From the NCBI GenBank assembly GCA_963924565.1, contig OZ004612.1, positions 14,570,001 through 14,634,000 of the forward strand: a DNA stretch of 64,000 nt, read 5' to 3'. Positions 6,601-51,300 of the stretch are shown here, in pieces (within the stretch, counting starts at the first letter, position 1; each line of letters begins with the position of its first letter). A program made the translations under genes and the position numbers. The notes beneath the pieces are model-generated. The model had not been told where the DNA came from, did not search any database, and was given only the letters and a program-made list of their open reading frames with translations. Origin of the DNA: Ascidiella aspersa. Lineage: Eukaryota.

Positions 6601-7605
6601 CGTTTTAAATAAAATATTACCAACCTCGTTTCATTTACAGATTTATAAAACATATAGCAATAAATATCTGGGCCAATGAAATGCCGTTAGATAGGTACTT
6701 AATTGTACTTGTGACTGTAACACAGTTTTTGTTCACACAGCAACAGTGTTATTTTAGAGCTCCCTTCATAACCGGCGAACAGTATTGGAATTCGCTTTAT
6801 GGTCTATACTCCACATGTAGGTAGCGGTTTTGTATGTTTTATTTTCGTGCGGTAAATAAAGCATGGTATTAATTAAGCATTTATTTTAACAAGTCGATTT
6901 TCTGCTTTAGCTGAACAACTGATAAAAATCAATATTTTTGGTACAGTTTTGTTAGGTTCTTCGTTTGGAAAAAAACTGTTTCAAAACTGATATGTTAAGT
7001 TCAGTTGAACTTGACATAAAAAAAGTGCAAAAGTATGATTTCTTCGAATGTTATGACACAAAATTATTATGATTTAAGAAAATTCAGGGAAATATTTAGA
7101 CTGAAAACCTAAAGATATTGTTCGCTTAACAAAATACAAGCAAAAGTATAAAATATTTCGTAATCGACGCTGTTTAACTTTTGATAGTTGTAAAATTAAA
7201 CAAAGGTCTAACTCTACATATAGCAAAATCAGTTTATATCGGTACTACCTCTGCGTTTTTCATTTATTTTATAGTGTCAGTTTATTTCTCAGCATAGGCC
7301 TATTTATAATATACAGTTTTTATATAATATGGCAATTTTGTTTTTGCCGATTAACTCTGGACTTCTATGTTTAAAACTGTTTTAAATAGTGTCCCTGGAC
7401 AACAGATGGCAAACCATTGACTAGCGTCAAAAATTTGAAATTACTTACTTCTCAAGAAATACAAAACATTTAATGAAATATTTCAGAAATAAATAAATGT
7501 TCCACTAAATCATTAACATAATGTTTTATATTTTTCAAACCAGGGTTGCCCATATACAAACTCCATTTTCTCCCTCCGTATTACAGCTGGGATCAGACGA
7601 TAACC

Positions 7606-10600
7606 ATGTGTTGCGAAAATTGAGTATTATTCGCATTCCTGTATGTAACTATTTTGACTTTGCAGCCGACCGATTTTACGGAATGTGGTCCCATCAATGC
7701 GGCTACGCTTCACGACATTGGATGACATACAACTACGAGTACAGAGTTTCTGATGGGTGTTCTGCTGACGAACAAATACGTTTTATTACCTGCGCGGAAG
7801 ACAGAGGGTCAACCGTGTAAGAAAAGCGACTGCTTATGTTGTTTAATTCCCCTAGTAGCGATAATTATATAGGCTTTCTTATAAATTGTTCGAAATAATA
7901 GCAAATCCCTCCAGTTAGGCCTACCATTCCCGCTACTGTATGTTGATGTTTGTAATGCAGGTCTGTCAGGAGTATCGGGTTTTTCAACGATTCGATTGGC
8001 CAGGATTTCTTCTACAGTGATGTAACTCAGATCAGTATCATAAACGTTCCTTTGCGTCGAGCTTTTCGAAACACCTTTTCAAACAATCTTCAACTAACTC
8101 ATCTGTAAGGAACCATCGAAGTTTTAGGGATATTGTATTTCTGTAAATCATTTGTATTTGCAAATCTATAGAGGAGTGTTATACTGAAACTGGGGTCCGC
8201 AAAACAATTTTCTGGGACCGCGATGCACCTAACAAAAAAATCAACAAGCTCCTGAAGAAGAATTTTTGTTTAATAAACTTTTCAGGCAACTTACTTTTCC
8301 AAACCAAGTTGATTATTAGTTGTCCATGGACGTCATTGCACGCTTCATGTCAAATTGTCCATTGTGACGACATAGTGTTACGTTTTTACAACTTGCTGCG
8401 CTGCCACTGTGGGATATACGGTCACGGTTTTAAAACTGTTCGTGATTGCTTCACTCAAATTAAGTGATTTGCTAGAGGTTAACATAGCCGAGCTTATAGC
8501 AAAGAATCAAGTGCAGCCGTCCCATTGTTACCATTAAACACAACGTGTTATTTTTTGTTAATTTGTGTATATTTTAAGGGACCGTGAGCAATTAAAAAAA
8601 TTGCTGGGGGACCGTTGCGTAATTTTTTTAAAAAGTTTGAGAACTACTGCTGTAGAGTGTCGCGTTTTGAACGAGACGGCGTATTTTTGTCGCAAAGACG
8701 CCACGAGGCGACTTGTTGTAACTGTCTATATGTTATTTGCAGTTTTTTGTGTTTCATAACAAAAACTAATGGCAAAATAAAGGTTTTATGTTGTTTTTTT
8801 TTCAGGACAATTCACGATACGAAATTGGAGGATTTTCCCGATTTCGAATCGAACACAAAACTGCAATGGCTGTAAGTGTAACAAATTACTCCTACTTTAA
8901 CAGAGCATTAGTACGGGTTGCCATATTTGGCAACGTACAAGCACTGACGTATTTCGCAACGCACAATCCCAAACGAGTTATTGTTTGAAGGGCCATAAAA
9001 TATACAGAGTTCATGTCATAACGTGTATAAATTCAAAAGAAGAAACCTGCTGTTTTTGAGCAAATCAAACAAGCAAACCAAATTGAATCAAAACGCTTTC
9101 GTCAAGGCCAATTGTTTTATTTAAATTTTATAGTAACTATATTAATGTAGTGTAGTAACTATATTAATGTAGAAAGAATGTATTTGTATAGTTTATTAAT
9201 CTTTTGGGCGCTAGTCTGTGGCCACATTAAGAAACATAAATATATTTTTAATGTTAGGTTTATTTCTAATGAAGGTATAACGAATGTCGCCTTTTGGCAA
9301 TTTAGCCCAAGCATAGACCAGTGTACGTTGTCCAACTGTATATTTTTTTACGCAAAAATCAAAAATTTAAACATTTGTTTTGCTAAAAATAATTTCACCA
9401 TTACTAATGTAGTTTGAAAGACACAAATATTTTTAGCTATAGGATCTATCCTTCCCCATCTTACAAACACAAGACAGAAAATGACACTTTTAATCATGGG
9501 CGAATACGGGATTGTTGCCATGAAGGGGCATAGGAATTTTTAGATATGAGGTCACAAGTTTTACGTCATAATTTATAACGTGACCTAAAAATATTTCGGC
9601 TTTAAAATAGCTAGAATCCCCTCCAAAAAATGCCAACATTATGCTTTTTACATTTGCGTTTTCTTGCTTATTAGTTTAATAGAATTATATTTTAACGTGA
9701 CTTTTTGTTGTGAGACCTAAATTAAGTGAAAGAATTTAAATTTGTTTCAGCACAAGAATACGTTCTACCTATTTTTATCATAGCTAAATTGACTTTTCGA
9801 AAATATGGTAGACCTCTTCTAAATGTATTAAAGTAGTAAAATTGGGACAGTTTTTACCCTTACTTTTTCATTTGAATATTTTTAAAGAGGCTAAAACACA
9901 TGCTAAATTAAAATTAGAACATCACAGCCTTACCTGTACAGTGTATTAATTAAGTCATGTTTTGACAGTGATCTTAGCAGAAATAACATCTCGTTTTTTC
10001 CGAATCACACTCGCCAACATCTCCCACCCTCTGTCACACATGTGTAAGTATACTGTAGGGCAATTATTTGTCAATAATCTTCCAACAAGGAGAGTCGTTG
10101 CTCATTTTATTTTAAGTCCACAAGTAGCCTTTCAGGTCTTTTTTTCTATTGGCAATAAAGTAACACGGTTTGTACGGTCTCCATAACATTATTTTGATGT
10201 CTTATTTTCCCGCTTCCAAATAAAACCATAGGGCCAAAAATCCAACTAGACCATTCGATTACCAAATATACACATAACTTGTGCGAAAAAAGAGTCGTAA
10301 TCCTTTTGTATATTACTTATGCGAAAAAAATCCCGTAATCCTATTGTAGTGGGGAGAGAATCGTAGCTATTGGTTTTAGTATAGTTACATATTTTAACTT
10401 ATTTTTTTTTACAATTTGCGCAAATACACAAAATGGCTTTGGTTGATTTTTACAATAAGCAAATTGCAAAACATAAATAAGTTACTATAATTGCTTGTTT
10501 TAAGACCTCGTTCAACGATGTGAAGTGCTTTTATCATTACCATTAAAAATCCATAGTTTGTAGACCTCAAACTTCTTTTAAAATAAATTTGTGAACATTT

Positions 10601-13600
10601 TATCACCTTTGTTTTTACTTAGCCCAGCTACTGCAAGAATAGGACGTTACTTAATATTTTTTGTTTACAGAAATTTAATTGAAAACAAAATTTCATGGAT
10701 TCCGCCTGATCTTTTCTCGGGAACAAATATCTCGTTTTTGTGAGTTTACCTGAACTTAACAACTAAGTAGACAATTTGCCTAAACTAAACAACTAAGTAG
10801 CCAATTCTGCAAGAATTATCCTTTCAAATAAAATCTATGTCGAAATTATTTGCAGCACGGTTTACTTCGTACGGCTGATAAAAAAAAATCGAAAACATCT
10901 AAAGTAAAGTTTTTAATGTCAGGCTAAATGTTTTTCCTAGAACTTTTAAGCCATGAATTATTTTAATTGTTACTTTTTCCAGTTTTCATATTATTCTAAC
11001 AAAAATGTTGTTGTTCTCAGAGCTTTGAGTTCAAATGAAATCGGGCCGGTCATTCCATTGCGGACTTTTTTCGATATGCCTAACCTTCGATATTTGTAGG
11101 TATTTTTTTGACAGTTGGTTTTATACCACTGATTTTCAGCTATATTGCAATAAACTTGCTTATTTTTTATCGACTTGATCGTCGCTGTAATCAAATTTTG
11201 TCAATAGATTAAACTATTTTGTAATTTTGTCTTTTTTCTATGATTTAATTAGTGTATCTACCTAGGTCGTTCGATGGTAACAACTTGACTGAATTATCGA
11301 AGTATTCTTTGCAGCAATTTCCGACTTTGATACATTTGTAAGTATAGGATTTGTATAACACATACATTATCCCAAACAGTAAATAAAACAGTGGCAATTC
11401 CACGGGTTATTTTTTTCTAAATACACCTAATTTGGGAGCTTTTTTTTTAAATAGTCCTATAGGCATTTGTAATATGTCTAGTTCGTCGGTTTACTTGTCA
11501 AAACCAAGCAAAATGTATTATTATTTTTTCCATTATTAATTATAACTAATACCGATTACGTTTTAGATTAATCAAATTTATTACATTTAATACTGCCTGC
11601 TTTAGTGTAGGCCTACTCCACGTACTGAATTTACAAAACGAACTTTTGTTGTTTGTATGTTGTAAAATAACACAGCCATGTTTAAATAGAAACCTCAGCA
11701 ATAATGAAATATCCCAGGTCCAGGCCAACGCTTTTCAAGGAATTAAACAGCTAAAAATTATGTAAGTTTTCTTTAAAATATATAGTTGTTACTTTAGGTT
11801 ATATCTTCCCCTAAATATTGCATTTACGTATTATTATGGTATGTGATTACATCAATTTTGGATTCGTTTATTTTGGTTTCCGAATAAAAAAACTTCAAAT
11901 CATAAACAGAACCTATTTTATAGAGATATTGAGTATTACATATTTAGGTGAACGTTAAGTGGCATTTCATTCATCTTGGAAGTGTAAAATAATATGTCCT
12001 ATGGTATAGATGTCCGTATTAATACCAAAAACAGGGAAAGATACACAATAATATTATTGTAAGAAATCGAACACCTGTCTAAAACTGCGCTAATTTTATG
12101 GTAAATTTTATCTTAGTGAGTTACACGGAAACAAAATCGGTAGGCTTGGATCATGTGTTTTCAACAACCTCCCTGATCTTCTTCACATGTAAGTATACAT
12201 GTAAAAGTCGAGTTAAAACAGCTATATATAGAAAAACGTGTTCAAATCCTACCTACTTTATACAGCGATCTAAACCATAACGAAATGACTGAAGTGGTGG
12301 AAAAAACGTTTAGCAACCTTCCCAGTCTAAAAACGCTTCGTTTGCACAATCAGCAAATAACCCACATCCACCCACAGTCGCTGCATAACATAAATGCACT
12401 TGAAGAGATCTTTGTTAGCAGTAATCTTTTACCGCTATTTCCTCATCACGTATTTGAATATAAAATCTGGACTTCTTTGAGACACATGTAAGTTGGCAAA
12501 TGTATTTTCTATTAAACCTCAAAAAAATATAACAATATTGCTTGAGTACTAATAGCTATAAGGAATAAAATGTCTGCCAAATTCGAATGAACATTGACAC
12601 ATTTTTAAGTAATACCTATTTTCTTATAGACATGCGGACAATAACGCCATTCGTGGTTTAGTGGAGTATTCGGCAACCTCCGAGTACGGAATAAACTGGC
12701 AAAAATGGAGGCGACTAAACGAGACCTTTGAACCCTTTCGGAATTTATCAAGTCTCCAAACATTGTAATTTTCTCTACTAACGTATCTTATATCAGCTTA
12801 TTTAAACATACGTTTTATAGACGTATTAAATACATTTTTTTCTACTGAAGTTATATTTGTCGTCTTGCTTAATAATATCCGTGATGTGCGAAAATTATTT
12901 CTAGGTTTTTGCACAACAATCAAATTTCCAACTTGGAGGAGAATACCCTCTGCAACATCCCGGCCTTATATCATTTGTCGTTAGGGGGAAACCACTTGAC
13001 ATCATATTCGATCAACCCACACTTCTTCAAATGCGTTCCACAACTAGGTATACTCAACCTGGAGAGCAATAGGTAGCTGATCTTTTACCTAAAAGCTGGA
13101 AATCAAACAGACGAGTGTACATTCAATAAACCATAACACTGTTTCATTTTTAAGGTTTCAATTTATACCAGAAGCAATCGCTGACACAAACTTTCTAAAG
13201 GAGCTAACTATATTGTACCTTCAAAGGTCTGTCTGAATCAGGTTGCTTTTGAAAAACCCTGCTTATAATATTCACATTCTAAACTTTGTTAAAAAATAGA
13301 AACAAGTGTTTCTTGACTGATTTGTGTCATTAGGGGTCTATATAGCCTATCATTCAAGAAAACGTTCTAGCTCATATGGCCTGGGAAATCTCTCACTTTT
13401 GGGTTTTAACAGCTGACAGTGTCATCTAATGTCAATTTACTATAGGCCAATATGTGACATATGCTTTTAAATTCTCAAAAACCACAACAAATCTTTATGA
13501 AAGAAATTACGTTTTTAATTTACTTGTTATTGTAGGTTAACCTTCTGTTTAAAGAGTAACTGTAGAAGTAAAATCAACAACATTTTTACTTCACGAATAT

Positions 13601-16600
13601 GAGAGTCGTTTTCCATAAATATACTTAGTTTGTTTGAATTGATTTTTTGATATATTGCAATATTAAACCTCTCGCCCTGCTCTATATCAACGTCATCAAG
13701 GTTTTCTTGGCTTCAATATAAGTATATCTAAATATAGGAAATGCATTTCTATGCTCATTTCGACCCCAAGAACTTGTGTTTTGGTCCACATTTGTTTCAC
13801 AAGTATCTTTAAATGAAATATCATGTGCTTAGAAAAAATCCTTGTTGTTGTTGTAAAGCAGGAAACAAAACATCTTAGTTCGAATATTTTGATAAACAAA
13901 CGTAAATAAACTTATTATTCAGCTGTATAGTGTTACTTTATAGGTTTTCTTGTATGAACCTTTTCAATGTTAAATATCTTATTGAAGTAACCAGAAATTA
14001 TACAGTTATATAGTTTATATACCAAGCCTTTATATCTAATAATACGTAAGCCGTAAACATTGCTCACAAAACAGCTTCAGAAGGGCCAGCCCACAGTTGT
14101 TGAACACACACATGTGTGTATTTTTTATTTCTTTACATCCGAATTGACCTGTTTTCATAAAAGGCAGGGTTTTGAAAGAGTTAACCCGGCGGCCCGGATT
14201 TTGCCATATTTAGTGACCCCGGCTTAAGATGCAACAATAAATGAAGAACATTTTAATCATTAAACAATATATGCAGTGTAATCAAATGTTTTAAACAAGA
14301 TAATTTTGTGTCAAATCGAGGTATAGGTTTACCAAAGAAATTTAATTAACAAGTTATTTTGATTAGTACGTCAATATTCTTTTTTTGTAAATTCATCACA
14401 TTTTTTTAAGATTTTTGAAAATCTGAAACCATGGGTAACCAAGCCTGTTGAATTAATAGATAATCACCCTGTGAGCCACTTTTCCAATACAAAATTGTGG
14501 CTTTTCACAGGATTAGATTTTATTGAGAATATATATATACCCAAAAGACACAAATCAGTTACGAAACAGTTAATTGTTTAATTTTTTTTTAAATGTATTG
14601 TCTTTTAGTAACAAAATAGCCTTCATACGAGCAAAAGACTTCACAACGTTGATCAAATTACAACAGTTGTTCATTTACTCCAACAACATATACACTGTTG
14701 AAAATGGGGCTTTTCCGTCAAATTTAACGACGTTACATATGAGCGCGAACATGTTTAATTTTAAGGTATTTTGTTTTACATGACGAATAATATATTTTCT
14801 TTGAGATTCTGTGTATGTGTTTATCTATAACAGGATTGACCAACCTTTTCATCGCGCCGGTCGGAAACACGACCTTAATTCTTAAAAAAAATAAACCAGT
14901 GTTGCATATATTTAATTATTTGCTAAATTCAAAGTTTTTAGACGATTTACAAATTTGGATTTTCCAATTTTAAGAACATAAGTAGTATACAAATTCTGCA
15001 GCATTTTTTATGGGATTACTGTAGTTCAACAAGAAGCTTTTCAGCATGGGTGTCCAAGGTGTGCAGAATTTTTATGCTGCGAGCTCTTAATTTCCCCTTA
15101 AGGATCGACATCCTTTACGTTTCACAGCGACGCACAAAATGCTTTAAGTTGCCTGCCTTTCTGTGCGCATTTGTTGAAGTACAATAGATTTATCCTTTAC
15201 TGAAAATGATTTATAACAATTCATATTTTTTAGAGACAAGTGGGTCATAAAATATCTGTGGTGGTGGGTCACTTCGTCACCCGCGGTTCAGCGGTCCGCC
15301 ATCCCTGATCTATAAAAACGATTTTAAACATAAATACAAATAAAGGGTAAAGTGTTTTCCCATATTTTTAGCACAACACAAGCTTCAACAATCTGACTTT
15401 ACTTACGTCACTTTACCTTGACCATAATCGAATCGATCACTTGCCCAGAGATGCTTTTTGGGGTCTTGATCGTTTATCTCGACTAGGACTCCACAACAAC
15501 CGCATTCCGTTTCTTCCAAAGGAGTTTCTTCGCGACAGCACATCTGTATTATTTCTGTAAGAACCTCAACCATGATTTTATTTAATGCTGTACCTTGTCG
15601 GTGTATGCTGTACCTTGTCGGTGGTGAAAAAGATTCTCTATAATGTTTTACCTTAGAAATGTCCTGCCGTTTATTGGTAATGTATTACAGAAGGTCGTAA
15701 AAATTTAGTAAGGTTTAGTTACATCCCATATCTTTTTAATTGTGCATTTCATCCATTGTTTACGATCTGACTCTGCGTATGTTTTTCTGAAAGGTTTTTA
15801 TTTTAATACACAAACGTAACTAAGTCCCGACGATAATGCAAATGTTAACTTCAAAATTGTATTTTTCTCACTATGTTTTTGTCTTTATTATTATTTGTCT
15901 TGTTCTAGTTCTCTAAGTTCCAACGAGATAACATTCATTGAAGCAAGTGCACTGACAAGACATACTTGGAACGGAATATCAATACAATTGTCCCACAATT
16001 GGATAGTTCACTTTCCATCACAAAACGTAGGATAATGTATACGTAATGTTTATACTGATATAGTAACAAAATGTTAATTCTTTAAAATTAATTGTTGGTT
16101 TAAGATAAATTTGTTTTCTTTTCCTAGGTTGATGCGCTTTCAAACCGAACATTAACATATTTGCAGTTGAACTACAACCGAATTGAAAGAATACAGAGTT
16201 TCTCGTTTCGCAATATACAATTTTCACTATCTACAATTTCAATTTTCACAGGCCTGGACCTTTCAAACAGTAAAATATCAACGATTGAATCAAATGCGTT
16301 GACTTCAACTACTTCAGGTTATTAACATTGGTATTGAAAATTTTTCAACTCCTAAATTGTAAAAATTAAACCTAAATCGATAAATCTTTGCGCAACCCCG
16401 TGTTTACTAAACGCGTAAAGCATTTCTCGTTATAATAGTAAAGTTTAATGTAATTCGAATATGCTAGCAGGCATTTTTAAAAGCGAGATATTTAGATAAC
16501 AAACTAAAGAAAAGTCAGCCATTTATAAAAGAACTATGTTAAATAGTTGATTGGTAACCTACTACCTTATCGATATTAATTTTAGTTATTTAATTTTAAA

Positions 16601-19600
16601 AAATATGTTAATACAACAAATAGGTTTACGTATTACAAATATCTAAGTTCAATGTTCTGGTGTATTTATCTTTTTGTTAATAGAAAAGTGTTAGTTTTTT
16701 ATTTTTTTCGATATGATTAATGTGAAAGAGCCTCATCACTAAGTTTTGAAACGATACTGTTTTACAGGAATAATAAATCTCAATGGAAATGTGTTGAAGG
16801 ATATTCGCACAGAAGCGTTTGTTAACGTTGAGGCGACACATTTTTACATGCAAAACATTTTAGACGAGTCTCTACCGACGTGCCTTTTTCAAAGTTCTAC
16901 AGTTAATTATCTTTACATGAACTCAGGATTTATTACAAATCTAAGCCCAACGGTAATTTAGCATTATCAATGTTTTGAAGGCCAGCGAGTTTTGGTTTAT
17001 CTTAAATGTTTAACAGTTTGCACATTTTCTGTTTGTCAACAGGGAGGCGTAAATCCAAGAAAAGCGTTCAATTCGAGTTTATGCCAATATGAAGTTAACT
17101 GTTATTATAACTAAAGTTCATACGTAAAAATACTCGCCATCATGGAATATAAGTTCTCATAGAAAATTGATTTTTAATTTCACGGAATTTTAGATGGCAT
17201 CTTTACGTTTCCTATAAATGAGTTTTTGTTTTGTCATTTCATTGTTTGTAGCATCTATTGCTTTAAACATTTCATTACCGCCTTGTTAGCTTTAAATTGT
17301 TTGTTGGATTTTTGTTCTATACCAACAGGTTTTTTGCGCCATCACTGTATCCCAAACACTTCATTTGGAAAGTAACCAAATTACAGCAATTTCGTCGCCA
17401 CTCTTTAGCTACAGCAGCTATGTTTATCGTTTGAACTTGCAAGGCAACGCGATTACAGAACTATCGGAAACTGCATTTGACGGAGCTTCGATTACTATTT
17501 TACATCTGGAATATAACCAAATCGTAAAAAATTCATTTGCTAGTTTAATAATTTTTAATAGCGTCATGGTTCTTGTTTCGGTCTAAAATGAAATCATGAT
17601 ATTTTTCATGTTACTGTAGGTTTTTTCAAAACGTTAGCTTTATCTGGGCACCGTAACTAAATGTTATCTTAAATTTAGGATTTTATGAAACACTTGTAGT
17701 GCTATAAATAGACAGTCAAAAATGAATCTTTAAAATAGGCGGAACTTCCAGACGAACTGAAAGTCAATGGTCTTCAGAGGCTAAATTTAACCTCGAATCT
17801 CATTGTACGCTTAAGACCGGTAGGATATCCCTAGTTATTTAGTATACAACAATCCGCATATGATATAACGTATACCCTAATTTCACAGGGAGTTTTCAAC
17901 AATCTTACCAACTTACGATATCTATACATGGATAACAATCAAATAACCGTGCTCCGATCGGAATTGTTTGACAGTCAAAGTTCTTTAGAAATTTTGTCAT
18001 TTACAAATAACGACATTACGGTGCTTGAGACCGGATTTTTCAGGTGCAACAGGGGGCGTGGCCTTATTTTGCACAATGTGCGCAAAAATGTGCAAGCCAA
18101 AATGTGCAAAAAATGTGCGCACATTTTAAACTGTCTTCAAAAATGTGCGCACTTTTTCAACAATGTGCGCACATTTTGAACTGCCCGCAAAAATGTGCGC
18201 ACTTTTTTCAACAATGTGCTAAACTGCCCGCAAAAATGTGCGCACTTTTTTTTTTTTAGTTGGAGTTGGAGTTGGAGTTGGAGTTAGAGTTAGCTAAACT
18301 ATGTACTCTAAGTCTGACCCTAATTAATTCTAACTATAACCTAAAAATGTGGGCACATTTTGAAGGCATTTTAAAATGTGCGCACATTGTTGAAAAAGTG
18401 CACACATTGTTAAAAAAGTGCGCACATTTTTGAAGGCAGTTCAATATGTGCGTAATTGTTAAAGAAAAGTGCGCACATTTTTGAAGCCAATTTAAAATGT
18501 GCGCACATTGTGAAAAAAAGTGCGCACATTTTTAAAGGCGGTTCAAAATGTGCACACATTGTTAAAAAAGTGCGCACATTTTTGAAGACAGTTCAAAATG
18601 TGCGCACATTGTTAAAGAAAAGTGCGCACCTTTTTGAAGGCAGTTCAAAATGTGCGCACATTGTTGAAAAAGTGCACACATTGTTAAAAAAAGTGCGCAC
18701 ATTTTTGAAGGCAGTTCAATATGTGCGCACATTGTTAAAGAAAAGTGCGCAATTTTTTGAAGGCAGTTTAAAATGTGCGCACATTGTGAAAAAAGTGCGC
18801 ACATTTTTGAAGCTATTTTAAAATGTGCGCTCATTTTTTGCACATTTTGGCGTGCACATTTTTGCGCACATTGTGCAAAAAATGTTCGCATCCCCGTCTC
18901 TTCAGGTGGCTAACCATAATCTTTTATTATTATACTACAAAGTTTAATATCATTGAAATTTTAAATATACATAATATCATTTCTATGTAATGTTATTAAT
19001 TTAATTATTTATTTTCAAATTATTTCAAAGTAAGCGCATTTAATCTTACATAACCCCTTTTTTTCAGCTTATCTGGCTTTCAAGCTTTGCGCACACTGTA
19101 CCTTGGTGGAAATCAAATAAAGCACATACCGCACTTGGGAAATTTAGTGAACCTACGTTGGTTGTACTTGGACAGCAATCCTGATTTAAAGACCTTCGAG
19201 ATTGGATCCCTGGACAGCGTATCAAACGACTTTGCCACTCTAGGACTTAGTGGTGTCGAGCTTTCTTGCAAGTAAGTATATTTATCGCAGTGTTGCTTAA
19301 CCCTTTTCACTCAGGCGCACCTTGTATCCAGCGGGGAAAGTAGAATAATTTTATTTCCGGAACGATGAACAAATGTCAGAAGTGACGTCACAAAGTTCAT
19401 ACTAAGCATCTAACATAAGTAACCAAATGAAACCAGAGGTTATCGTTTAATGTATTACATAAATATCAGTTTAAACACATTCAAAGAGATGGCGGAATAG
19501 CTTGGCGTAAAAAAAGACATTCAAAATTTCTTTAAGAAAACGCTGTTCCGAACCCTTCTAGCCTACAAACACCATGCTGTGTGTATCTCCAAAAATTGAT

Positions 19601-22600
19601 AGAACAACTGGTGTGCTATTGAAGCGAGCGCGGGATTTAGTGGCCTCCAGGGTCATTTTATGTCAATTCACCAGGCCATAGAAACCATGGTTTTGAAATG
19701 CTTAAAATTGTTTCAATTTTTTAAGAACAAGCCTTTTTGAAAAAAATTGACTTATTAATTTTTCTGAAACTCGGACGTATGACGTTTTTCGTAATCCACT
19801 TTTTCGTTAATTAAAGTGTAACTGAAACATATAACTTTATTTCTTGTCCAAGAATGGCATTTTATTAAAATGGAAACGTCATTTTTCTCAAAAACTGTAA
19901 TTTTAAGAAATCTGACAGTGATGTAATGACTTGAGTCATTTTTTGACAAAAGTGCACTAAAGTCGCTGTTTTTAAATTACTTGACTTGACTTAATTTGTT
20001 CGACCAAAATGACTTTACTTGAGTCTTTTGGACAAATAACTTGACTTGGACTTAAGTCATTTCGTCGAATAACTTTGGATTAAATTAAGTGTTTTTGTTT
20101 AGAATTTATCTCGAATTTTTGCGCATTAAACACTTTTCGTGTTTCGTTAATGTTATTTTTAATTGATTTATTACCCAAGTTTACCAATTTTAAAAGCTTG
20201 GATTTGACTTGGACAACCTATATGCCTTGGTGTGGGACTTGACTTGTTATGTTTTCAAAAGACTTGACTTGGACTTCTTGGACTTAAGTTATATTTCAAA
20301 TGACTTGACTTGGACTTATTGCAAGTCATTTCAAAATGTTTGTTTACAACACTGGAGTCTGAAACCATGTGTTATGGCCTTGTAATATGAGAATATCTCT
20401 TCCCTTGGGGAATTAATAAATATATATATATATATTTATTTTCTACTTATGTGTTATCGTTTTGTTATGTTTGACAACTTATTAGAGCCGTTTTAACATA
20501 AGGCTTTAAAAAAACACCTTAAATTTCAGCTGTGATATGATCAACACGCTTTATCCAGTGGAGCAAGCAATCGTAGGTGGAAAATGTGAACAGCAAGGTG
20601 TCAGTCTCTCATCGCTTAAAATGACTATAAATGTCACAGAAAATCTATTTTTGTGCAGGTGATTTTTAAGTTGTTTTTTATTTCAACAGAAACATTAATT
20701 TAAAACAAAAATCCTTGATCCGGCAGTGCTTTTTATGTTTTAAATTAAAATTTAAACACTTTTAAAGAACCAAGATATATTTCGATAAACAAAAGGGTTG
20801 TTGATTTGGAACTTTTGCTAGAGTCTGATTGTACGTTTCTCCGTTCAGTGGTGAAAATTACAGCGCCTACGTAACAAAGGATAAAGAGTTGTCTCTAACT
20901 TGGTCACAACCAAGCAATCTCTTCTACCAATTATCCAACACATCAGGTGATTGGACCGTGGAACCCGTTTTAGAGCCGGTATCACTGGAGCAGGGCGTTG
21001 ACTGCTCATGCAGGTAAATTAGACGTAGAACAGCTCTTTGTACAAAACTAAAAGTGTGATTAATCGCAGGCTTTTATCTTGAAGCTATATCGTTTTCATT
21101 TGGTATAAAACAATATCATAAAAATAAAATTATAGTTTCACAACAGATAAGTGTTTGAAAGTTGTTACTAATTGTGGAGTTGTTAATATGTAATACTGTG
21201 TTGCATAGAATTTTTTTGTGAGACTTTTATGACGTATTCCTGTCCGAGTATAAGCGCGACTCTCCCAGTACCGGTAGTAGGTTATTTATTGCTTGTAATA
21301 GGTGCACTGCCAGTAAATACTACACTAATCAACACTAAAACGATAAATAATGTAATTATGTTTGAAATGTTAATTGTATATTCACGTTGAAAACATATTA
21401 ATAAAATACAGAGAGCTTGTGGCAAATTCATCTATAATCAACTCTACTGCACTACTCAACGAGACTGCGACAAACGGAACATTCTTCACGAACGCTAACA
21501 TGGACTGTTTGAATTCAACCACATCAACAGAAAACGCCACCAATCCAAGTAGTTGTTACGTTAAACTTATTGTTTAGCTAATAAAGGAACTATCAAAGCT
21601 TATAAAGTGTCAAAATATAAAAAGGTTTACAATATTTTATAGATTGTTCAGCTGCATTTAATGAAACAGTTGTCGTATGCGGCACCCACTGGAGTACTTC
21701 TCAAGAATGCATCGACGAAATGATGTAAGTAATCTTAGTCATAAAAATAGTATCGTTGTACAATGTTTTAACTAAATTCATTCATAGTAAAAAGAGCATA
21801 CCTCATAAATAATTTTATCGCAAATTAGTGAGTCATCAATGTTTTATTTACAATGTCATAAATACTTAATCTTCGTATATGGCCGTATGTGTCTAATTCT
21901 AAATAGAGGAATCAGGTGGCACTGTATAAAGACAAATTGTATTTGTTTCTCGACAAGCTTTGCACAACCGTGCTTCATCAGGTCAAAGTATAAATGAAAA
22001 CAATTGAAATGCACGTAAAAGCACAAGCGCAAGTAAAAGGCGATAAGAATGGTGATGTCTAACATATCCACAGGCACATGTTCGCAAAAGCGTGTTACTG
22101 ACGCAAAAACAATTATACTACGAGGCCTGCGCTTCAAGGTACGATGGGTGTAGTACAGCCTGCTATGAGGTGTAGTGTGACATAAAGCCCAAATCCCGAA
22201 GTCCGACATTGATGGCATCGAACTTTTTAATTATGTTTTGTTCGACTGTCGCCTGCGGCACACTAAAAATATCAAAATTAATTCAAGGCACACTTTTTAC
22301 AAAATATCACAATAATAACTTAACAATCCGAGCAACTTTTTAATCTCTCCAGCACACAGTTTTAATCACTGAACTAACCTATTAAATAATTTAACAAATA
22401 AAAAGCTCATTTGTTTGTTTTGCAATGAATAGTAGTATTATTCAAATGGCCTTCTATATAACAAAGTAACCGGTAAATACCTTATTAGTTTTATCTAATT
22501 ATAATGGGTATAGGTGAAGTCTTGAGTGCATTGCCGGCATATTAGTAATACAAATAGTGATTTTTAGCAAAATCACACTAATTCAGTCGCAAACTTAACA

Positions 22601-25600
22601 ATCTCTCGCAACACACTATAGTGTACCGCGGCACACAGTTAACCAATCACTGCTGTTCAGTGTACACTATTAGGCAAAATATGCACGTATCATTGTTGGT
22701 AACAAGGCGTTTTGAAATGATTTAGGTCGAAGTCAAGTCTTCTGCCAAAAATGTACCAGTATAAGTCATCAGTTGACAAGGTCAATTCCCGGTCAAGTCA
22801 TTATAAGAGAAAGTCAACTTCAAGCCAAGTCATTGATATAAAGTTATGACGTTGAACTAATAAAATGAATAAACTCGTACGATTATGAGCAGTAAACATG
22901 ACTAAAATTAACAAAAACGCAATATAGGCCTACAGCAAAGTCCATGTAAAGCTATTTTTTAAAAAGTATCAACTTAAGTAAGTTAAGTCATTTTGGTCAA
23001 AAGACTTGAGTCAAGTCAACTCATTTAAAAACAGTGACTTATATCCACTCAAGTAATCTCATTGACTAAAAACATTTCAACACTGAAAAAGTACTGTACT
23101 GAACAATATGTTCCGATTTATAAGAAATGCCCTTTTTTAAAATATTACTATCGATAACGGCTCACATATCACCATTAGTAGAGTGGGAATAATTTAGCAA
23201 CAACAATAGACTGGTGCCTTATCGTAGGAATTTACTGGCCAATGTAAATATCGCAGATCTTACAGTGTCAAGTGCTCATCAGAAGGTTCGTCGTTTACTT
23301 ACAACGTTACAAACACGACACTTCTTATTAAAGAGCCTCAACCGGGGTCAACTTACCAATGCACAGTTAGTCTTTTGTATAACAATACTGAAAGCTCACC
23401 AACAGCTATTATATGGCTACAAGTTCCTGAACTCGAACTAGGTTAGTACAGATTAAACTTAAATTCATTATTAAAAAATAGGTGTTTTAGTCGCTAGTTG
23501 ATGTATTTCTAGTTTCGATCCGAAGCTGCGATAATAATTAAATGCGATACGCTAAAACTTGATAAAATCTACCTTAACGATAATTCGGTAAACCTCGGTT
23601 CAGTTTTTGGCAAATAGTAATTCATTTTTCCTTCGTACTAAAATTTATCAAACTATTAAATCGTTTTAAATTAATAAAAATCGATAATTTTTTATACCTG
23701 GCCCGCAATCGTAAATGCTAACAGTTATTTGCCTCGCGATGGTCAGGCCTTACATTTATCTAGCTAATTATGAAAAAAGATTAGTTATCCCTGCACTAAT
23801 ATACTATTAACTTATTTTATTAGTGAAAACAGCACATTTTAATAACTTAATTTGCATTCAGCTGAATCGTGTAACAACACGAAATTGTGGAAATTGCCGG
23901 TTACCTATTATGATTTTAGTAAGCTACATCCAGATTTTGGAAATAACCCAGTTACAAGTCCTTCGTCCTTTTTCTACATAGCCAGGTGTTTATATGTGGT
24001 TTGCTGTTTGCGATGATCGTTTGCTTAACTATTATTTTACGAAACATGTTAAATTGCCTATAAACTTTTAGCCCTGTAACTGTTTGGTTGGCCGACCTTG
24101 ACAATCCGAACAACACTGGATTTCAGGATTGGTTCCGGAATGTTTCTGGAATAAACTTTGTCTACCAAGAGCTGTTGTACCTAAAATCCTGTGAAGACAA
24201 TGGTTCATATAGGTTTGTGCAGTCTCACAATTAACAAATAAAGTACTCTAGTTTAAAAAATGAAATCATTTACCAGGTGTTACCAAAATGCTGACCTAAT
24301 AGCTATTGAGTTCTTATACACTTGTCGCAGAAAACGCTTGTTTATATTGGCAACAGCCGTCAATTATAGGCTACTAACTTTATATGCTAAGTGTTATGAT
24401 TCATTTTTTAACTGAACGTTTATCTTACAGCAATAATAAATAAATTAAAATTCTTCTAATAATATAGATACTTTAACTCCACGTACTATCCATTGGATTT
24501 CGTTGGTTACCAGCATGAATCCCAAAGAAACTGCAGCGATGAGTTACACAACATGGGGTAGGTTATATTGCAATATACACAAGTTTTAGTAGTTCCAAAA
24601 ACAATCCCAAACTAAAAAATTCAATTTCACGTAAAATCTGTGTGAAACGTCAACTACAGATTTTGTGTGATACAACAACTAACACTTTTTTTGAGAGAGA
24701 AATAAAACAACGGCAAAAAAGATAATATGTTACAGATTTACAAGTGCAATTAGGACGGCATTCACTTACGAAGGACCAATGGCAATAACTTTGGGGGGTG
24801 GCGAATACATGTTTCTTTTTATCGGCACTAAGTTGGTCGCGACATACGCCAGCAGTGGGAACAATCTTATAACTGAATGTGTCATGTTAAACGTTGGCCT
24901 CAACGAGCGCGGTAAATACGTTGCATTTATTTTTTATTATCATTTTTTAATAGCCGTAAATGTAATACGTAGTTTGTTACACTCCTAAAGGTTTATTGAA
25001 AGTCGAGAGAAGTTTTGGGAACATAAGGAATCAAACATGCGTCACTGAAAGCAGTGAATTTATCAGTTTTGATCTAGAACTACAGGTAAAACTAATCTCT
25101 TTTGGAAGATTTAGCAAATGTATATCCGATAAGATATTGATATATGTATAAAGATATCGTTGGGGAACAGTGCTTTAAATGGGTACACATATGTTGTTGG
25201 AAACAATTCGATGTGGAAATATGGATAAATGAACATTAATTGTAATTATTTGATACCCGTACCATAAAAATAAATTAGATAAAGTATAAGTTGCATAATT
25301 GTAATTATTTGTGATTACATATAGATAGGCGACGTTTATCAATTTGACTTGTTTCATGTTGAGCGAGATTCTTGCTCGTCTGAGTTTCTATTTGAAACAC
25401 TAAATGTACAGTTTTCAGAGGAATTTTTAAACGAAAGTACTGAAATCATCTCAGGTGAAATTGTTTTATACTTTTTATTTTCAATACTAATAATATTAAA
25501 AAAATGCTGCTTTTTAGGGACGGATTCAGCTGTAACATCAACGGCCATCCCACTAGAGACAACCACTACTAATGTCGTTGCGACTACCGTAACAAATGGT

Positions 25601-28600
25601 TCAACAACCAGTTTGCCACCAAACGACACAAATATCGGTCTGACAAGTGTTTGACATGTATAAAGCCGCATTTGATTACCTTAACGGAAATCGATATGTT
25701 AATGTTAGCCTGTTCTTGAACAATTCGTTATTATTTGTAAAATTCAATAAGATAGAAACGGTTGTAGAATCGTGTTAACACGGTGGTTTTAAAAAATTTG
25801 TTCCTTTTACCTAAATGTATATAAAAACGCTCAAAATATAACTGCATATTATACAAAAAGTAGCGAACGGAATTTAGAAAACGTGTTACGTGTGACTTGT
25901 GGTATTTTACATCAGTATGACTTGCAGGCAATTAAAGCGTTACACTATTAAACAAAAAATTGGAATTAATCACGAATTTTGAATGTAATACATCCTTTTT
26001 TGATGAAACTTATCATTCATCATGCTTTTACTAACCTATACCTCGCTGCAAATAATACATAGGATTTTTTAAATGTCAACCACGAAAAAGTCAGTGCACT
26101 ATAGTCAAAATTGTTTTCAGGAGAATCAGTTTAAATATAATAAAATTTTCGTTTTGGCTGCAACTTAAGATTTCTATTTTCTTTCCATATATAGCCAGCA
26201 TTGTGTGTCTATACTATTCACACTAAATTATTACATACTGTATGTCTGCAATCGCGACGTAAAGTTTCACTACCACTGTATTAACCCAAACAAGCAAACG
26301 CTTTTCTTGGCCAACTTAAATTGTTTCTTATTTTTATATATTGTTTTAGGTGAAACGAATGCGGTTCCTTTAATATTGGCAGAACCACACATAGATTTGT
26401 TTTTAACGCTTCCGGAAAATATGGAAGTTGGAAGTTACGTTGTTACATTTGGACTTGGAAGAAAAAATGGGTGAGTTTTAAAAAATATATTTTTGTTGCC
26501 ATTAATTCGCAACGACATAATAGAAAAAAATTAAGGCAATACAAATAGGTATTTACTAGGCGGTAATTAGCATCAAAATTTTATTCAAACTATTTTAAAA
26601 AGGGCAAGCACGTATGCTTTATAAAGAATAGTAATGAAAGTCTTTCAGTTACTGGTCATACTTGTTAACAAGGAAAATTTGGTTGTCTGGTCTCAACAGA
26701 TCATTCAGGGTCGAAATGTCGGACGAAAACGGAGCTGGGGATTTCTTTCAACTTACAGCAGAAAACAGAGCAAACCTCACAAACCGTTCTTTTTTTGCAT
26801 TGCAAGGAAATCAACGAACTATCAGCAATCAGACTTTCTTAGATTGCTCTTCACTGTCTGGTACGCCACCTTGTCAACGTCTTATTTTAAAAAATAATAT
26901 TTTTTATTTTTCCTTAAAACACCCTTGGATTACAATGTTGTCCTATAGAGCTTTTTATTGTTTTTCATTCATGTTGTTAATAAAAGTAATATCGTTTATA
27001 TTGCTTTTAGTTCGGTTTTGTTTTTAATAGATTTTGGCACAACGGTACCACCTCCTGTAGGAACAGTTGTTTACACTAACGACTCTCTCTGCCATGTTTT
27101 TCTCAGAAGTCGTCTAGACTTCGAAACAACACAGTTTCACCTGCTTAATATCACGGTAGAGGTGAGACAAAGCTCTTACGACCTAAAATTATCTGCAAAG
27201 CATCTAAAATTGTTTGTATTTCACAAGTTTTAGTTCAAATTAAATAAGAATATTTAAAAAAAATATTATTTAAGGAGGTCTTATATTTAAATAGCAACAA
27301 AGTTTTGGTTTGTTTCAAATGTTAATCCTGTTTGGTAGGACATTTTGTTGAACCAAACAAACTTTCTAATAATTAAAATCAATGTTGGGGATACAAATGA
27401 CAATTGTCCTGAAGTGAACGCTTCTTTGGTAAATATAACTCTTTTGAATCCCTCACTTTCTACGCACGTTCCAATGTTTGCGCTGAGTGCAGTTGACGTC
27501 GACAGCTTTGACAACTCTCTTATAAATTACGTCCACAGTGAACCAAGCGTTAGGTAAGTAATACGGCATATTTTGTTAAAACATATTAATGCTTTAGCTG
27601 TTTATAGGTTGCAATCCAATGTTTACTAAAATGCTCAGCTAATAAATAAAAGTAGGATTTGGCCTACCACAAAAAAAACTTTTTCTACACTTCCAACTGT
27701 AGTGACTTACTTAACCTAATACTAAACCCACGTATCTCAGGATTTTATTTGGGCAATAATGCGGCTAATTAAAAGTTTCAACAAAACAAGCAAAACGTAT
27801 TTAAATTGCTTGATGTTAGTGTTATTATCGCTTTTTGTTAGCTTTAAACGAAAGTTCCGCCTATGTGTAACATACGTTGTTTAGCGGAGCAAAAGATCCC
27901 CAATTTTTTATGTTATAGACAAAAACTTGAAAGGTCCAGCATTCTTTGTTTTGAAGTCGTAGCATATGACTCTGGGAGTCCAATACTGGGAAGATCTTTA
28001 TCAATCAACATTGAGGTTTATTTGACATGAATATTTTGACGTTTATGTAGCTTAAATGTTATCTTACTAATTTAATCCGTTTTGAATATTGTTAATCTTT
28101 AATAATCACTTTGCAATTTTGAGTTAAATCAACCACTTAATTTAGAAAAGCCTGATTTTAAACTTTAACAAGACGATTGTTCTAGTAACTATACTTTTCT
28201 CATGTCTCCACTTGGATCTTCCATAAGTTCAGATTAGCCGATGCCGATACCAAGTGGTATTTTTGCTACAGGTCCGATAGTAATGTTGTATCGGTACCAA
28301 TCAAATACCAGAGTAATACTAGAATTTCAGTCATGGTTTGTAATCCCACCCACCGACCCTACCGTTTAAGGAGATTTAACGAAAAGACAAATATTGACCT
28401 AAGATCGGAAAATGGTAGTAATGACGTAATTTGGTATACGATAGGGTCGTGAAACTTTTTACAAAATATCGGCTTTCGGTATCGCAATAAATTGTCAACT
28501 ATCGGACATCCATATATTTCCCACCATTTTTTTTTATTTCAATTGTTTTCTATAGATATCGGATACTTGTCTTTATGATTCTTTTGGGCATCAGTTGAAT

Positions 28601-31600
28601 TATTTCATTGAGTTAGAGTCAAAAAATAATAGTGGCACAGCAAAATTCTTTCTACGCCTTCCAACGAGATACGCCTTAACGTATGGTAAGTTTATTACAA
28701 TAACATTTAGACTTATAAAAACGTTACCTAATGACCTTCGGTACTGATACTAATAAAGCAGCGCGGTTCTCTATAATACAGTTGTTTAGAAAAAAACATA
28801 CATTTAAAACTGAAATAACGACAAATGAATGCGAACGCGAATTGTCAATTACCACAAAGGATTTGTGAAAAACATTCAGTTTACTAACGCTGTCTAACCT
28901 TTCAATATCTAATGGCCAGGTTATAAAGAATGTGTCAGGATCTCATTGTATAAACAAACAGTGTCTAAGTTTGATTGACGAATTTATAAGACGTAAAACG
29001 CCTAATGCGGATTGTGTAGTCGACCCTTGGCAACGCCTTGTCCTAGTTGATAAAGTATAAGCACTATTTCCTACCGTTTTTTATGTGCTGTTGTCGTTCG
29101 AATTTATTATTCCCATATAGCATGTCTGTTAAATACTAATAACCCACTTACAATCAATTAAAAAAGAAAGTTTTAGTTGCTATTTGTCTTTTGTAGATTG
29201 TACCCTGCCAGTTGGAATTGAAAGTGGCACAATCGGCAACTCGGCTATAAGAGTGTCGTCTGTGAGGGATACCGGCGAATGTGGTCATGTGTATCACGGA
29301 CACTTCGCCAGGCTCAATCGGGAATCGACATTTGACAAACACGGATTTCTTTTGGTCGGTGCTTGGGTGGCGGAAGACAACGATACGATGCCTTGGATTG
29401 AGGTGCCTTAGATTTTGTCTAAATTGTTTTTCAGGGCGACCTTTTTTTAAAGATCGGTCACTTTTCGATTGTTTGATATAAATAGTAACTTCTCTGTGTT
29501 TTCCTGATTTTAGTTTTTGCTAAAGAACGTTGGTTAGTACGTTCTGTTTCAACTGAGTTTCAGAAATTTCCATGGTAGGAATAAAACACAGTTCGTAGTA
29601 AGTTCAAAATAGGACTAAAATCTAATAGTCAGAATATGGTCAAAGTCAAAAAAAAAATACCTATACCCATCGGAATAACACCTAATTGGCCAGAATAAGT
29701 TCTAAAGAACCTCTTACCTAAAACCTCAAAAGTCACCCCTAAATCGTAACTAAGTTCAATTCAGGACGCCCAAACGCCCATACTAAAACGGCCGATGCCA
29801 GCCCGATGGACGCCCCATATCCTCGCCAGACTGTTTTTTTAAAGAGTTATTCAGGCCAATTAGGTCTTGTTTCGACGATTTTTAACTTATTTCCACAGGA
29901 TTAGACCTTATACCAACAATATACGGCTTTATTTCGTCGTAGATGTTGCTGCGTGTTTTTCAATTTTAAGTATTGTTGTTTTCTAGGCTCTATTGTGTGT
30001 TTTCTTTTTATCATTATACTTCTGACAATTGAATACCTGCAGAAAATTGACTTTAGGTGGCTATATCACTGCTTATAGGAAGTGAATATGGTCAATTATG
30101 ATGCGTTTGATTCGTGATCTAATCAGGATACGTTATTTATTTGGCCCGTGGTCAAATCTTGATAAATGAATTTGACGCATTGGAATAAAAGGTTCCACAT
30201 CTTTTTTAGAACAATTCCGTTGAAAGACCAATTGCAGCATTGATAGACAAGATACATATTGATGTATTCTGTCATGACCTAGTTAATAAAGCACCACCTA
30301 GCACAACTAATTCAATATATCAGCAACTGTCAAAATTTTCGCAAACGTTTTTTATAGTAAAAAAACACGAAGCTATTAATGGCTTCTTGGCAGCAATTGC
30401 AGTGGTCAGGTTGTAAAATATACTTACACAAATTGTTGTTTATAGGTATCCCTTGAAGAGAGTACAAGCCTTACATCCATAGCTACGCAAGGGTTTGAAG
30501 ATTTCAACTTCTGGCTAACTCACTATTACGTAACATTCAGCAATGATGGAGTTAATTGGCTAATTTACATTCCACAAAATTCAATGGCGATAAATGGTAA
30601 TTATATGAGAAATATTGTTGAACAGATATTTTGCACACGCTTCGCGCAAATCTTTTTGTAATGTCTTACAATGATTTTTGGAAGAACTTAGCCCAAAAGC
30701 GCCGTGCGCAAACGGCATTCTAAAGAATTTTCCTATACAAATCATGTTTCATCCTGGCAAAAATATTTTTGTCTGTTTTTTTACATATAACATAAAACCG
30801 TGAGTATGACGGGTGTATTAAAATTAAATTTAATTTTGCGTTGACTTGGACTCTCTCCAAATTAATATTTCTGTCAAACTATATTATTTTTAGCAAAAGC
30901 TACAAAATTATCCTAAAATACGCAATTACATATAACAATGTGCGAACCGTTTTTGTGCGTCTTCTGCTGTATTAAAGTTATTGTCGAATAAGCCTTAACG
31001 AGGTCACGGTATAGAAACATCCTGAAACAGCCCAGCTCCTGTTTGTTGTCCGCCTAAAACTCGCGAGGAACATCGTGACCCCTGAAGAGTTTCAGACATA
31101 ACGCCAAAACAATTAAAGCAAAATTTACGACTTTTCTTGAGGAAATGGTGTGATTTGCGATTATAGCTTACCAAACTGACTCCAAATAAAGTGGATTAGA
31201 GATGACCAAGCGTGTGTATTTTAATAAAGTAAACACTATATTTACTGATTCAGGCCGGGTCAAGTGATGGTGCTAACTTTTGTGATATAAAGACATATTT
31301 TTGCCTTTCCCGCAAATTTCTGTTCACTTCTACTGTGTTTTTTTTTCCGCTTTTAGAAAGACTATTCGGCGCGCTATTAAAACCATTGATTTACAGGACC
31401 CTAATTCAGGCAAAAATTATTACTAAAACAGTTTTCGTGTTAATTTAAATAGCTCCTTCGACACTAACTTCGTCAAATAATCTGTCAATATAGTCCGAGC
31501 TATATGAATACGTTTTGCATTTTGGAGTATATTATATAGCCATTAAATCACTATTTTTCGTCTGTCGACAGACACAGGTTGTTCTTCACCGAATACCGAA

Positions 31601-49929: not shown

Positions 49930-51300
49930 CAGGGCCGGATTAACATAGTGGCAGCTGCTACGGGCCCCGCGCTTCACAAGGCCCTGCGCTTGGTGAGCCA
50001 ACATTGTTTGTTTTTTGGGCAAAAAAATGTCGAACATAGTTGGTAAGAAATTTTTGGCTTGAAAACTGGAATGGCATAGGATAATATTATAGTTGTAACT
50101 TGTTAGTTTAAACTACTAGTCCCGAAATATTGTCCCTTCCTAATTATTGTAAACTTTAAAAACAGTAATTTCCACTGGAGGCAACTACCTTGATCGAGTG
50201 CTTCACGAACACAATAATGTGACCGCTACTTTGGAAATACTTCGACACATTTCAGCCTGTATACCAAGAAGTGTTAACTATTAAGGCCCGTTTACACTTC
50301 AGCTGCACTGGGCGTGAAGTTGTTTTCACTACAGCTGCAGTGAGCTGCGCTGGGCGTAAAAATCGCCCCAAAACGTAACGTGTTTGAATAGCTGCACTGC
50401 GGGCTTGAGTTTAGCAAAGCGTGAAAATCGCTCCAAAGCGTAACTTTAAGCTAGCTGCAGCTGATGCACGGGGCTTGAGTTTAGCAAAGCGTGAAACCTT
50501 CGCCACATTAGAATTTTAATGCAAATTACGCTTTGCTCAGCTCAGTGCAGCTGTAGTGTAAACGGGCCTTTAGTTTCGCTTTGACTTGGTTTCCCAATCG
50601 CACAAAAAACACTCATGTTAGCTCGCATTTTTCTTACATCGAACGCTCTGCTTTAACGCAGTAAACATCACGCCACGTTTAAGGCATTGTGACGTAATAC
50701 GAACGGTTTTAGTCGTAATAAGTTTAATATGGCATTTTTTATCTGAAAAGAATGTTAAATACCACTGTTAGATACTAATTGTAACAAGGGCCACGATGCT
50801 AGTCCTAGTTGTTAAAGAGAACATTCGAGGGATTGACAGCTTCGCATTGGATTTATACTATTTCGTGATTGAGACAACTATAGCACCTTTTGTACTAATA
50901 GCCAGCTGGTTGAATGGTTGGGTGTCAGCCGAAGGACTACAGTAATTTCTATTGCCATTGATTGCTCCTCTCCAGAACTCAACTATTTTACTTTGATCAA
51001 AGAAAACAATATTGACACCACGTTTCCTAACAATGACAATTTGTTACGTATTTATCTATGTATGATGGTAACTAATTTTACCGAAGAGAGATCGTTTTCA
51101 AAATTGAAGTTAGTTAAAAACTATCTGCGAAACACAATGGGGGAAGAGCGGCTACACTATTTAACTCTTTTGAATATTGAAAATGACGTTCTAAATTCAC
51201 TAAGCTCATCCGAAATAATTACCAAATTTGCAGAAATCAAAATGCGTCGAAAAGACATTCAAATAATATTGTTGAATTTTTATATTTCTTGCAAATAAAA
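49930..51300 (+). mobile_element. Degenerate hAT transposon with transposase C-terminal dimerisation remnant
   Basis: 5' end CAGGGCCGGATTAAC; the ORF at 50918-51298 contains FPN...LLRIYL...ERSFSKLKLVKNYLRNTMGEERL..L.LLNIE. Confidence 0.85.
50284..50569. mobile_element. PIF/Harbinger (Tourist-like) MITE
   Basis: TIR AGGCCCGTTTACACT.CAGCTGCACTG / CAGTGCAGCTG.AGTGTAAACGGGCCT; TTA TSD. Confidence 0.9.

Follow-up and report, generated by a model that had tools for sequence, protein, structure and literature searches.

A polymorphic foldback transposon whose target-site duplication copied a splice donor in a mega-thrombospondin-like gene of Ascidiella aspersa

Introduction

What becomes of a splice donor when a transposon inserts beside it and leaves two copies of it behind? 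We address this question in Ascidiella aspersa, in a window of 64,000 nt (assembly GCA_963924565.1, contig OZ004612.1, forward-strand positions 14,570,001 to 14,634,000; positions below are those of the window). The original prediction held that a foldback transposon inserted on a donor had created an intron-shaped insertion, representing either an introner-like or recursive-splicing configuration or a further lesion in the gene.

Results

The host gene

The region was covered by three sequencing runs (X1, X2 and X3) of one study. The gene and the parts of it that flank the insertion are as follows.

6681..45270 (end approximate), + strand: mega-thrombospondin-like gene, from Pfam matches and domain order
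17889..18043, + strand: exon 22, 155 nt, LRR, ending ...TTTTTCAG, phase 2, from the gene model and an X3 contig
18906..19067, + strand: ancestral 162-nt intron, intact, with donor GTGGCT, TTAAT at 19040-19044 and acceptor ...TTTTTCAG
19068..19271, + strand: exon 23, 204 nt, LRR, from the gene model, the X3 junction and Pfam

We classified the gene as mega-thrombospondin-like by domain order only. Its predicted architecture comprises a signal-peptide-like start, LRRs, FN3, F5/8C, TSP3, TSP-C and LamG, the Pfam fn3 match being weak (E 0.006, below its cut-off). In the available portion of Shoemark 2019 (PMC6526912), the mega-thrombospondin domain order matches the LRR/FN3/discoidin/TSP3/TSP-C/ConA-like series of the host, in which an LRR region of about 1000 aa is followed by FN3, discoidin, TSP3, TSP-C and a second ConA-like domain. 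The one candidate exon for a cadherin domain gave no Pfam match to it, and orthologue searches returned none usable, one of them giving generic TSP3-repeat proteins only.

The gene model used here covers exons 1-23; an automatic exon chain for the rest of the gene proved noisy and was set aside. Exons 1-23 form one LRR-rich open frame of 999 codons, with 0 stops in 2999 nt and no other lesion, so the proposal of a further lesion finds no support in this part of the gene. The exon that carries the donor, previously numbered 20, is number 22 from the ATG, and exons 22 and 23 are both single-copy in their own genome. Elsewhere in the gene, an EGF-like exon is followed by a likely GC-AG intron donor (GAG|GCAAGT, 34978-34985), and exons 17-18 (15909-16317) exceed the X3 contig by 18 nt, a gap likely to reflect an in-frame duplication-like stretch near 16215-16250.

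The insertion and its empty allele

The insertion consists of the following features.

18039..18046, + strand: left target-site copy TTCAGGTG, spanning exon position -5 to intron position +3
18044..18049, + strand: new donor GTGCAA, in which the element now supplies +4 to +6
18047..18900, + strand: non-autonomous foldback-type DNA transposon, 854 nt, termini CAACAGGGG...CCCCGTCTC, absent from X2
18901..18908, + strand: right target-site copy TTCAGGTG, whose AG at 18904-18905 is the candidate recursive acceptor

In context, the left repeat reads CAG|GTGCAA and the right repeat TCCCCGTCTCTTCAG|GTGGCT. The element entered between +3 and +4 of an intron that is used in X3, and the TTCAG of the repeat belongs to the last codons of exon 22. 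The stretch 18044-18905 is 862 nt long, begins with GT and ends with AG, and its deletion restores the empty-allele sequence exactly, as expected of a removal that regenerates the ancestral 5' splice site. Any duplication of an AG|GT donor produces such a GT...AG shape, so the intron shape of this copy follows from the donor duplication and is not a trait of its family. AG precedes GT in 13 of the 37 donors of the host gene, and the duplication of this donor was likely a chance event.

The X1 sequence is identical to the window, carries the insertion as its only allele and may be the source of the assembly. X2 represents a haplotype that differs from the window by 1-6%, depending on the stretch. 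In one 2858-nt contig of this run, exon 22 passes directly into GCTAACC, with one TTCAGGTG (record letters 1288-1295, the 8 letters that map to both repeats), no element, and no change from the window at 18901-18931. This is the empty allele that the original prediction had called for. The results showed that the insertion is a real, polymorphic foldback element whose 8-bp duplication copied a true donor. Across 6300-19345, the DNA-like runs X1 and X2 each show a single haplotype, yet they lie several percent apart; inbreeding, cryptic lineages or assembly collapse could account for this.

The ancestral splice junction

The X3 contigs join exons at a depth of about 54; the kind of run is unrecorded, and we treated X3 as RNA-like solely on account of these exon-joined contigs. 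In a 1960-nt spliced contig, the end of exon 22 stands directly before 19068, the start of exon 23, and letters 197-432 (236 letters between the mapped pieces) correspond to exons 21 and 22 (81 + 155 nt). The end of the exon (18036-18043) and the end of the intron (19060-19067) carry the same 8 letters, TTTTTCAG, in the window, which makes the junction ambiguous to aligners. X2 differs from the window at two letters of the intron copy and X3 does not, so the joint is 18043|19068. Taken as an acceptor, the end of exon 22 itself reaches 5.7 bits and thereby resembles the distal exonic sites described in the accessible part of PMC10156609.

From the fact that X3 shares with X2 all 9 exon-23 differences and the silent change at 18032, we infer that the spliced contig derives from the empty allele. 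The spliced contigs found belong to this other haplotype only: they confirm GTGGCT as the original donor and are silent on the filled allele. None of the X3 contigs listed spans the element boundaries or the 162-nt intron, a blank that we did not count as evidence. Among the 40 of 411 entries listed, 11 of the 19 exonic haplotype differences are non-synonymous and 8 silent, which is not a strong signal of constraint.

Structure of the element and its predicted RNA fold

Within the element, four features were distinguished.

18052..18206, + strand: left arm of the long inverted repeat, composed of GTGCGCACA units of about 50 nt, 155 nt long and 88% complementary to the right arm
18258..18291, + strand: central AGTTGG/AGTTAG microsatellite, typical of the family, with expansions in some copies
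18314..18334, + strand: the sole branch-point-like YTRAY motifs of the element, some 570 nt ahead of the AG at 18905
18741..18895, + strand: right arm, covering the would-be branch region of the AG at 18905

The long inverted arms are tandem arrays of units, as in foldback elements, and together with the fixed termini, the duplication of fixed length and the empty site they bear out the classification as a foldback transposon. The outermost 20 nt of the two ends match at 9 of 20 positions only and are not inverted repeats. In three other copies (L007, L024 and L037), the central hexamer microsatellite has grown to several hundred bases.

The predicted RNA hairpin is strong (z = -32 against 20 shuffles), in agreement with the long hairpin proposed earlier. 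Its stem is predicted to close 18052 to 18895, with both donors and the AG at 18905 outside. The predicted pairing probability is about 0.9 over 18860-18879 and mixed (0-0.9) over 18880-18895, and the AG at 18905 is predicted to be unpaired. Folded in this way, the hairpin would leave the two donors about 20 unpaired nt apart.

The element family and its target choice

Exact family ends in the element's own genome number at least 123 right and at least 131 left, against 2 and 0 for reversed controls. Fifty-six copies have both ends, among them the focal copy and four copies from one duplicated site, and their termini are CAACAGGGG and CCCCGTCTC with little variation. Among these, the 8-bp duplication is exact in 33/56 and has at most one mismatch in 41/56, whereas lengths of 4-7 and 9-12 are exact in 0-2/56, so the repeat at the focal site is a true target-site duplication and not a coincidence. 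The other copies thus do not differ in their termini or duplication length, the finding that would have spoken against the original prediction. The pyrimidine tract before the right target-site copy is present as described; it is the fixed right terminus of the family, CCCCGTCTC, and not peculiar to the focal copy. Copy lengths range from 81 to 1508 nt among the 39 sites kept.

The target preference of the family is C|C......G|G. At the at least 123 right and at least 131 left ends, focal copy included, AGGT or ACCT stands beside 5 right and 7 left ends, against 9 and 4 for AGCT or ACGT. Of the other 38 paired sites, three of which represent a single duplicated site, none contains AGGT or ACCT, where 1.2 would be expected. 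Neither orientation of the element begins with GT or GC or ends with AG, and the opposite orientation likewise ends pyrimidine-rich. By eye, the 70-nt flanks of the 10 other AGGT/ACCT ends showed no evident coding-exon boundary. These findings indicate that the family is without splice-like targeting. They give no sign of a genome-wide AGGT preference (12 AGGT/ACCT against 13 control tetramers), and introner-like behaviour of the family, which lacks this preference and terminal splice dinucleotides and creates no new intron position here, is not borne out.

Several individual copies deserve description. In L021 and L022, a duplication ending in AGG and the element's first C together give an AG|GC...AG shape. 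In L096 (1556-1920), the duplication GTTGGTAA overlaps a consensus-like candidate donor (right copy G|GTAAGT), 2.8 kb upstream of an SR-protein-like frame. Four 137-nt copies with a common target site (L009-L011 and L023; G000:C6, 11.52-11.62 Mb) stem from tandem segmental duplication, not from separate insertions.

Search for an autonomous partner

Our search for an autonomous partner covered Zisupton-KDZ, MULE and P-like transposases. Family termini were absent around 8 of 8 KDZ matches, around 19 of 21 MULE matches at 10 kb and from 40 stretches covering most of the 51 P-like matches. The sampled MULE families begin with GGTAG, and the P-like termini are CACTGATC or CAAAGAG. No autonomous partner was found in 20 stretches following family left ends, and the centre of a 2-kb relative, which matched at 4 places, identified none.

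Other transposons came to light in this survey. A Mutator-like family with a GGTAG start (L194-L197 and L207), unrelated to the focal one, looks recently active; its copies agree at 98-99% along some 7 kb, and a long repeat array occupies one side. A group of P-like elements (L213-L215, L218, L219 and L250), some 6.5 kb long and bounded by CACTGATC termini, has open frames of up to 800 aa and, in L219, an 8-bp duplication, and also looks recently active. The window itself holds a fragment of a hAT transposase dimerisation domain (Pfam PF05699) at 50873-51295.

Splice-site strengths in the filled allele

We scored splice sites with matrices built from 37 donors and 38 acceptors of the host gene alone, of which 15 and 16, respectively, were picked by eye. 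Of the two donors, the new one scored 2.5 bits and the displaced one 5.7 bits; among acceptor sites, the AG at 18905 scored 4.9 bits and the true acceptor 10.4 bits. The new donor GTGCAA scores above 4 of the 37 gene donors, and 28% of 506 decoy GTs score at least as high; it lacks a match at +4A, +5G and +6T, as does 1 of the 37. Of the decoys, 5% score as high as the displaced GTGGCT. Calculated U1 pairing is -6.8 kcal/mol for the left donor and -7.3 kcal/mol for the displaced one.

Among the 42 AGs of the intron, the true acceptor ranks first and the AG at 18905 tenth. The latter outranks 15 of the 38 true acceptors, and 15% of 352 intronic decoys score at least as high; it has a pyrimidine tract, no TRAY at -50..-12 and a branch region mostly predicted to be paired. 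TRAY is present at these positions in 26 of the 38 true acceptors and missing in 12. When the AG abuts exon 23, its score drops to 2.7 bits. One further site was noted downstream.

18987..18992, + strand: cryptic donor GTAATG, predicted, 81 nt past the AG at 18905, 5.7 bits

This donor could define a cryptic RS-exon.

The filled intron measures 1024 nt, and other introns of the gene reach 1097 and 1382 nt. Normal mRNA could arise by three routes, namely directly, with the element removed first, or with the old intron removed first and the element second; all three require the left donor, and the last two also depend on the new AG. Splicing from the right donor alone, which keeps the element as an extra 862 nt with a frameshift and a stop after codon 976, and exon-22 skipping both lead to early stops. 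A junction of 18043 with 18906 would by itself be no proof of splicing, as it has the sequence of the unspliced empty allele, and reverse transcriptase can jump from one 8-nt direct repeat to the other across a strong hairpin. The element ends differ from those of the nearest copies at 3/110 and 2/110 nt, so the element is possibly not brand new, although this bounds its age only loosely. Counting substitutions only, a dead allele would have a chance of 0.54, 0.29 or 0.08 of carrying no stop at 0.5, 1 or 2% divergence, and the open frame of exons 1-23 together with the single allele of X1 weakly suggests that the filled allele is tolerated.

Which splicing route fits the filled allele

The reading we favour, to which we give about an even chance, is that of a chance foldback insertion whose filled allele still gives normal mRNA through direct splicing of the left donor to the old acceptor. 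The 854-nt transposon would have entered intron 22 three bases in and duplicated TTCAGGTG, and the left copy would keep CAG|GTG at its normal distance from the exon-22 acceptor, so that exon definition would favour the left donor. The hairpin would fold the element out, leaving 8 nt to the stem and 172 nt from the stem to the acceptor. Part of the transcripts would use the stronger displaced donor, meet a premature stop and be lost, and the right end of the family, which happens to be pyrimidine-rich, would give the AG at 18905 its acceptor-like look. Consistent with one-step splicing, the left donor lies within the gene's range (4/37 lower, with similar U1 pairing) and clear of the firm stem, no other of the 42 AGs scores as high as the true acceptor, introns as long as the filled one exist elsewhere in the gene, and the family has no AGGT preference. 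In human introns shorter than 1000 nt, conventional lariats outnumber recursive ones, according to the available part of PMC10156609. The stop-free exons 1-23 and the finding of the insertion allele alone in X1 are in line with a tolerated allele, but X1 may be the source of the assembly, contigs drop alleles, and the open frame counts for little if the insertion is young, a dead allele having a no-stop chance of 0.54 at 0.5% divergence. Further points against one-step splicing are that the new donor loses the +6 match and is equalled by 28% of the 506 decoys, that the displaced donor at 5.7 bits keeps its own 162-nt intron, and that the spliced contigs come from the empty haplotype only. When a donor is duplicated, the copy nearer the acceptor often wins. 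Were the displaced GTGGCT to win here, the element would be kept in the mRNA or exon 22 skipped, both outcomes ending in early stops, and the allele would be weak or null. The difference in score (5.7 against 2.5 bits, reached by 5% and 28% of decoys) and a hairpin that would place both donors within about 20 unpaired nt argue for such a lesion, and the intact exons 1-23, the insertion-only X1 and element ends that are maybe not brand new argue against it; we regard it as a serious alternative, less probable than one-step splicing. Since both donors fall outside the firm stem, donor competition would be a likelier cause of any lesion than the hairpin.

The new AG would matter if the intron were removed in two steps through a zero-length exon, either the element first (recursive) or the old 162-nt intron first. 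The geometry for this is exact, with a tandem acceptor-donor that regenerates the 5' splice site; the AG at 18905 outscores 15 of 38 true acceptors and is predicted to be unpaired, the hairpin would draw GT and AG together, and the TRAY missing at -50..-12 is missing in 12 of the 38 true acceptors too. Recursive sites need a cryptic exon defined by a downstream donor (PMC8605326, in the part available), and the GTAATG 81 nt on may define one. Set against two-step removal are that missing TRAY, a branch region mostly within the predicted stem, the tenth rank of the AG and its 2.7 bits once next to exon 23. The available text of PMC6110457 describes recursive sites as typical of long introns and conserved, and the 3'-first order as rare in flies; the present intron is 1024 nt, and the site is polymorphic and absent from X2. 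Two-step removal thus appears unlikely, the sequence features lean against the AG at 18905 as the main route, and it is equally improbable that the target-site duplication created a working zero-length exon in which the copied AG would be needed to rescue the mRNA, given the greater strength of the displaced donor. Some introners take both of their splice sites from the target (PMC9860276, as far as its accessible text goes), and L021 and L022 show an AG|GC...AG shape. Against an introner family that seeks out AGGT or generates introns across many loci stand the lack of AGGT enrichment at its ends, the absence of splice dinucleotides from its termini in either orientation, flanks of the 10 other AGGT/ACCT ends without an evident coding-exon boundary by eye, and the place of the focal copy in an existing intron. 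The flank counts (12 AGGT/ACCT against 13 control tetramers) largely refute this reading, which we consider highly improbable.

Discussion

Taken together, the case is most likely an ordinary polymorphic insertion beside a donor, with tidy geometry. It resembles the intron gain by transposon insertion into AGGT described by Yenerall and Zhou 2012 (PMC3443670, which cites maize Ds, Giroux 1994; available in part), in that the duplicated AGGT provides a left-hand donor together with a right-hand acceptor and makes precise removal possible. The present case departs from that model because its AGGT already served as a donor, in place of a protosplice site within an exon. The insertion therefore adds no intron position; it would yield two introns lying end to end, and a one-step event can skip the new AG. 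With introners (Gozashti 2022, PMC9860276; PMC11282704; both available in part), the element shares the form of a non-autonomous DNA transposon with inverted repeats and a target duplication and, with those of Florenciella in the same part of PMC9860276, splice signals that would both derive from the target. It differs from them as a single case, known from DNA sequence, in a family with no AGGT bias.

Recursive sites or ratchet points, as portrayed in the accessible parts of PMC8605326, PMC6110457 and PMC10156609, likewise show a tandem YAG|GT with a second donor shortly downstream, whereas the site described here lies in a 1-kb intron near its 3' end, is polymorphic, lacks a branch motif and is a matter of sequence so far. 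In build, the closest likeness is to Tm1 of root-knot nematodes (PMC3169594, in the part available), an element of variable length that likewise has composite inverted repeats made up of short tandem units, flanked externally by fixed asymmetric motifs, and duplications of 8-10 bp. Compared with Tm1, as given in the same part, our family has a duplication of 8 bp against mostly 9 and an asymmetric part of about 20 nt against 7; it also has a target preference and no linked transposase. A literature search, with most subscription journals outside it, returned no paper that combines recursive splicing, a transposable element and a target-site duplication, nor any on duplicated donors.

Filled and empty alleles both exist, with SNPs within read length on each side, among them those at 18032, 18932 and 18936, and thus offer a natural test that could tell whether the duplicated donor is bypassed, harmful or a recursive site. 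If it were a recursive site, it would be a newly arisen ratchet point, still polymorphic and with the empty allele serving as its natural control, and recursive use would give ratchet points a concrete origin.
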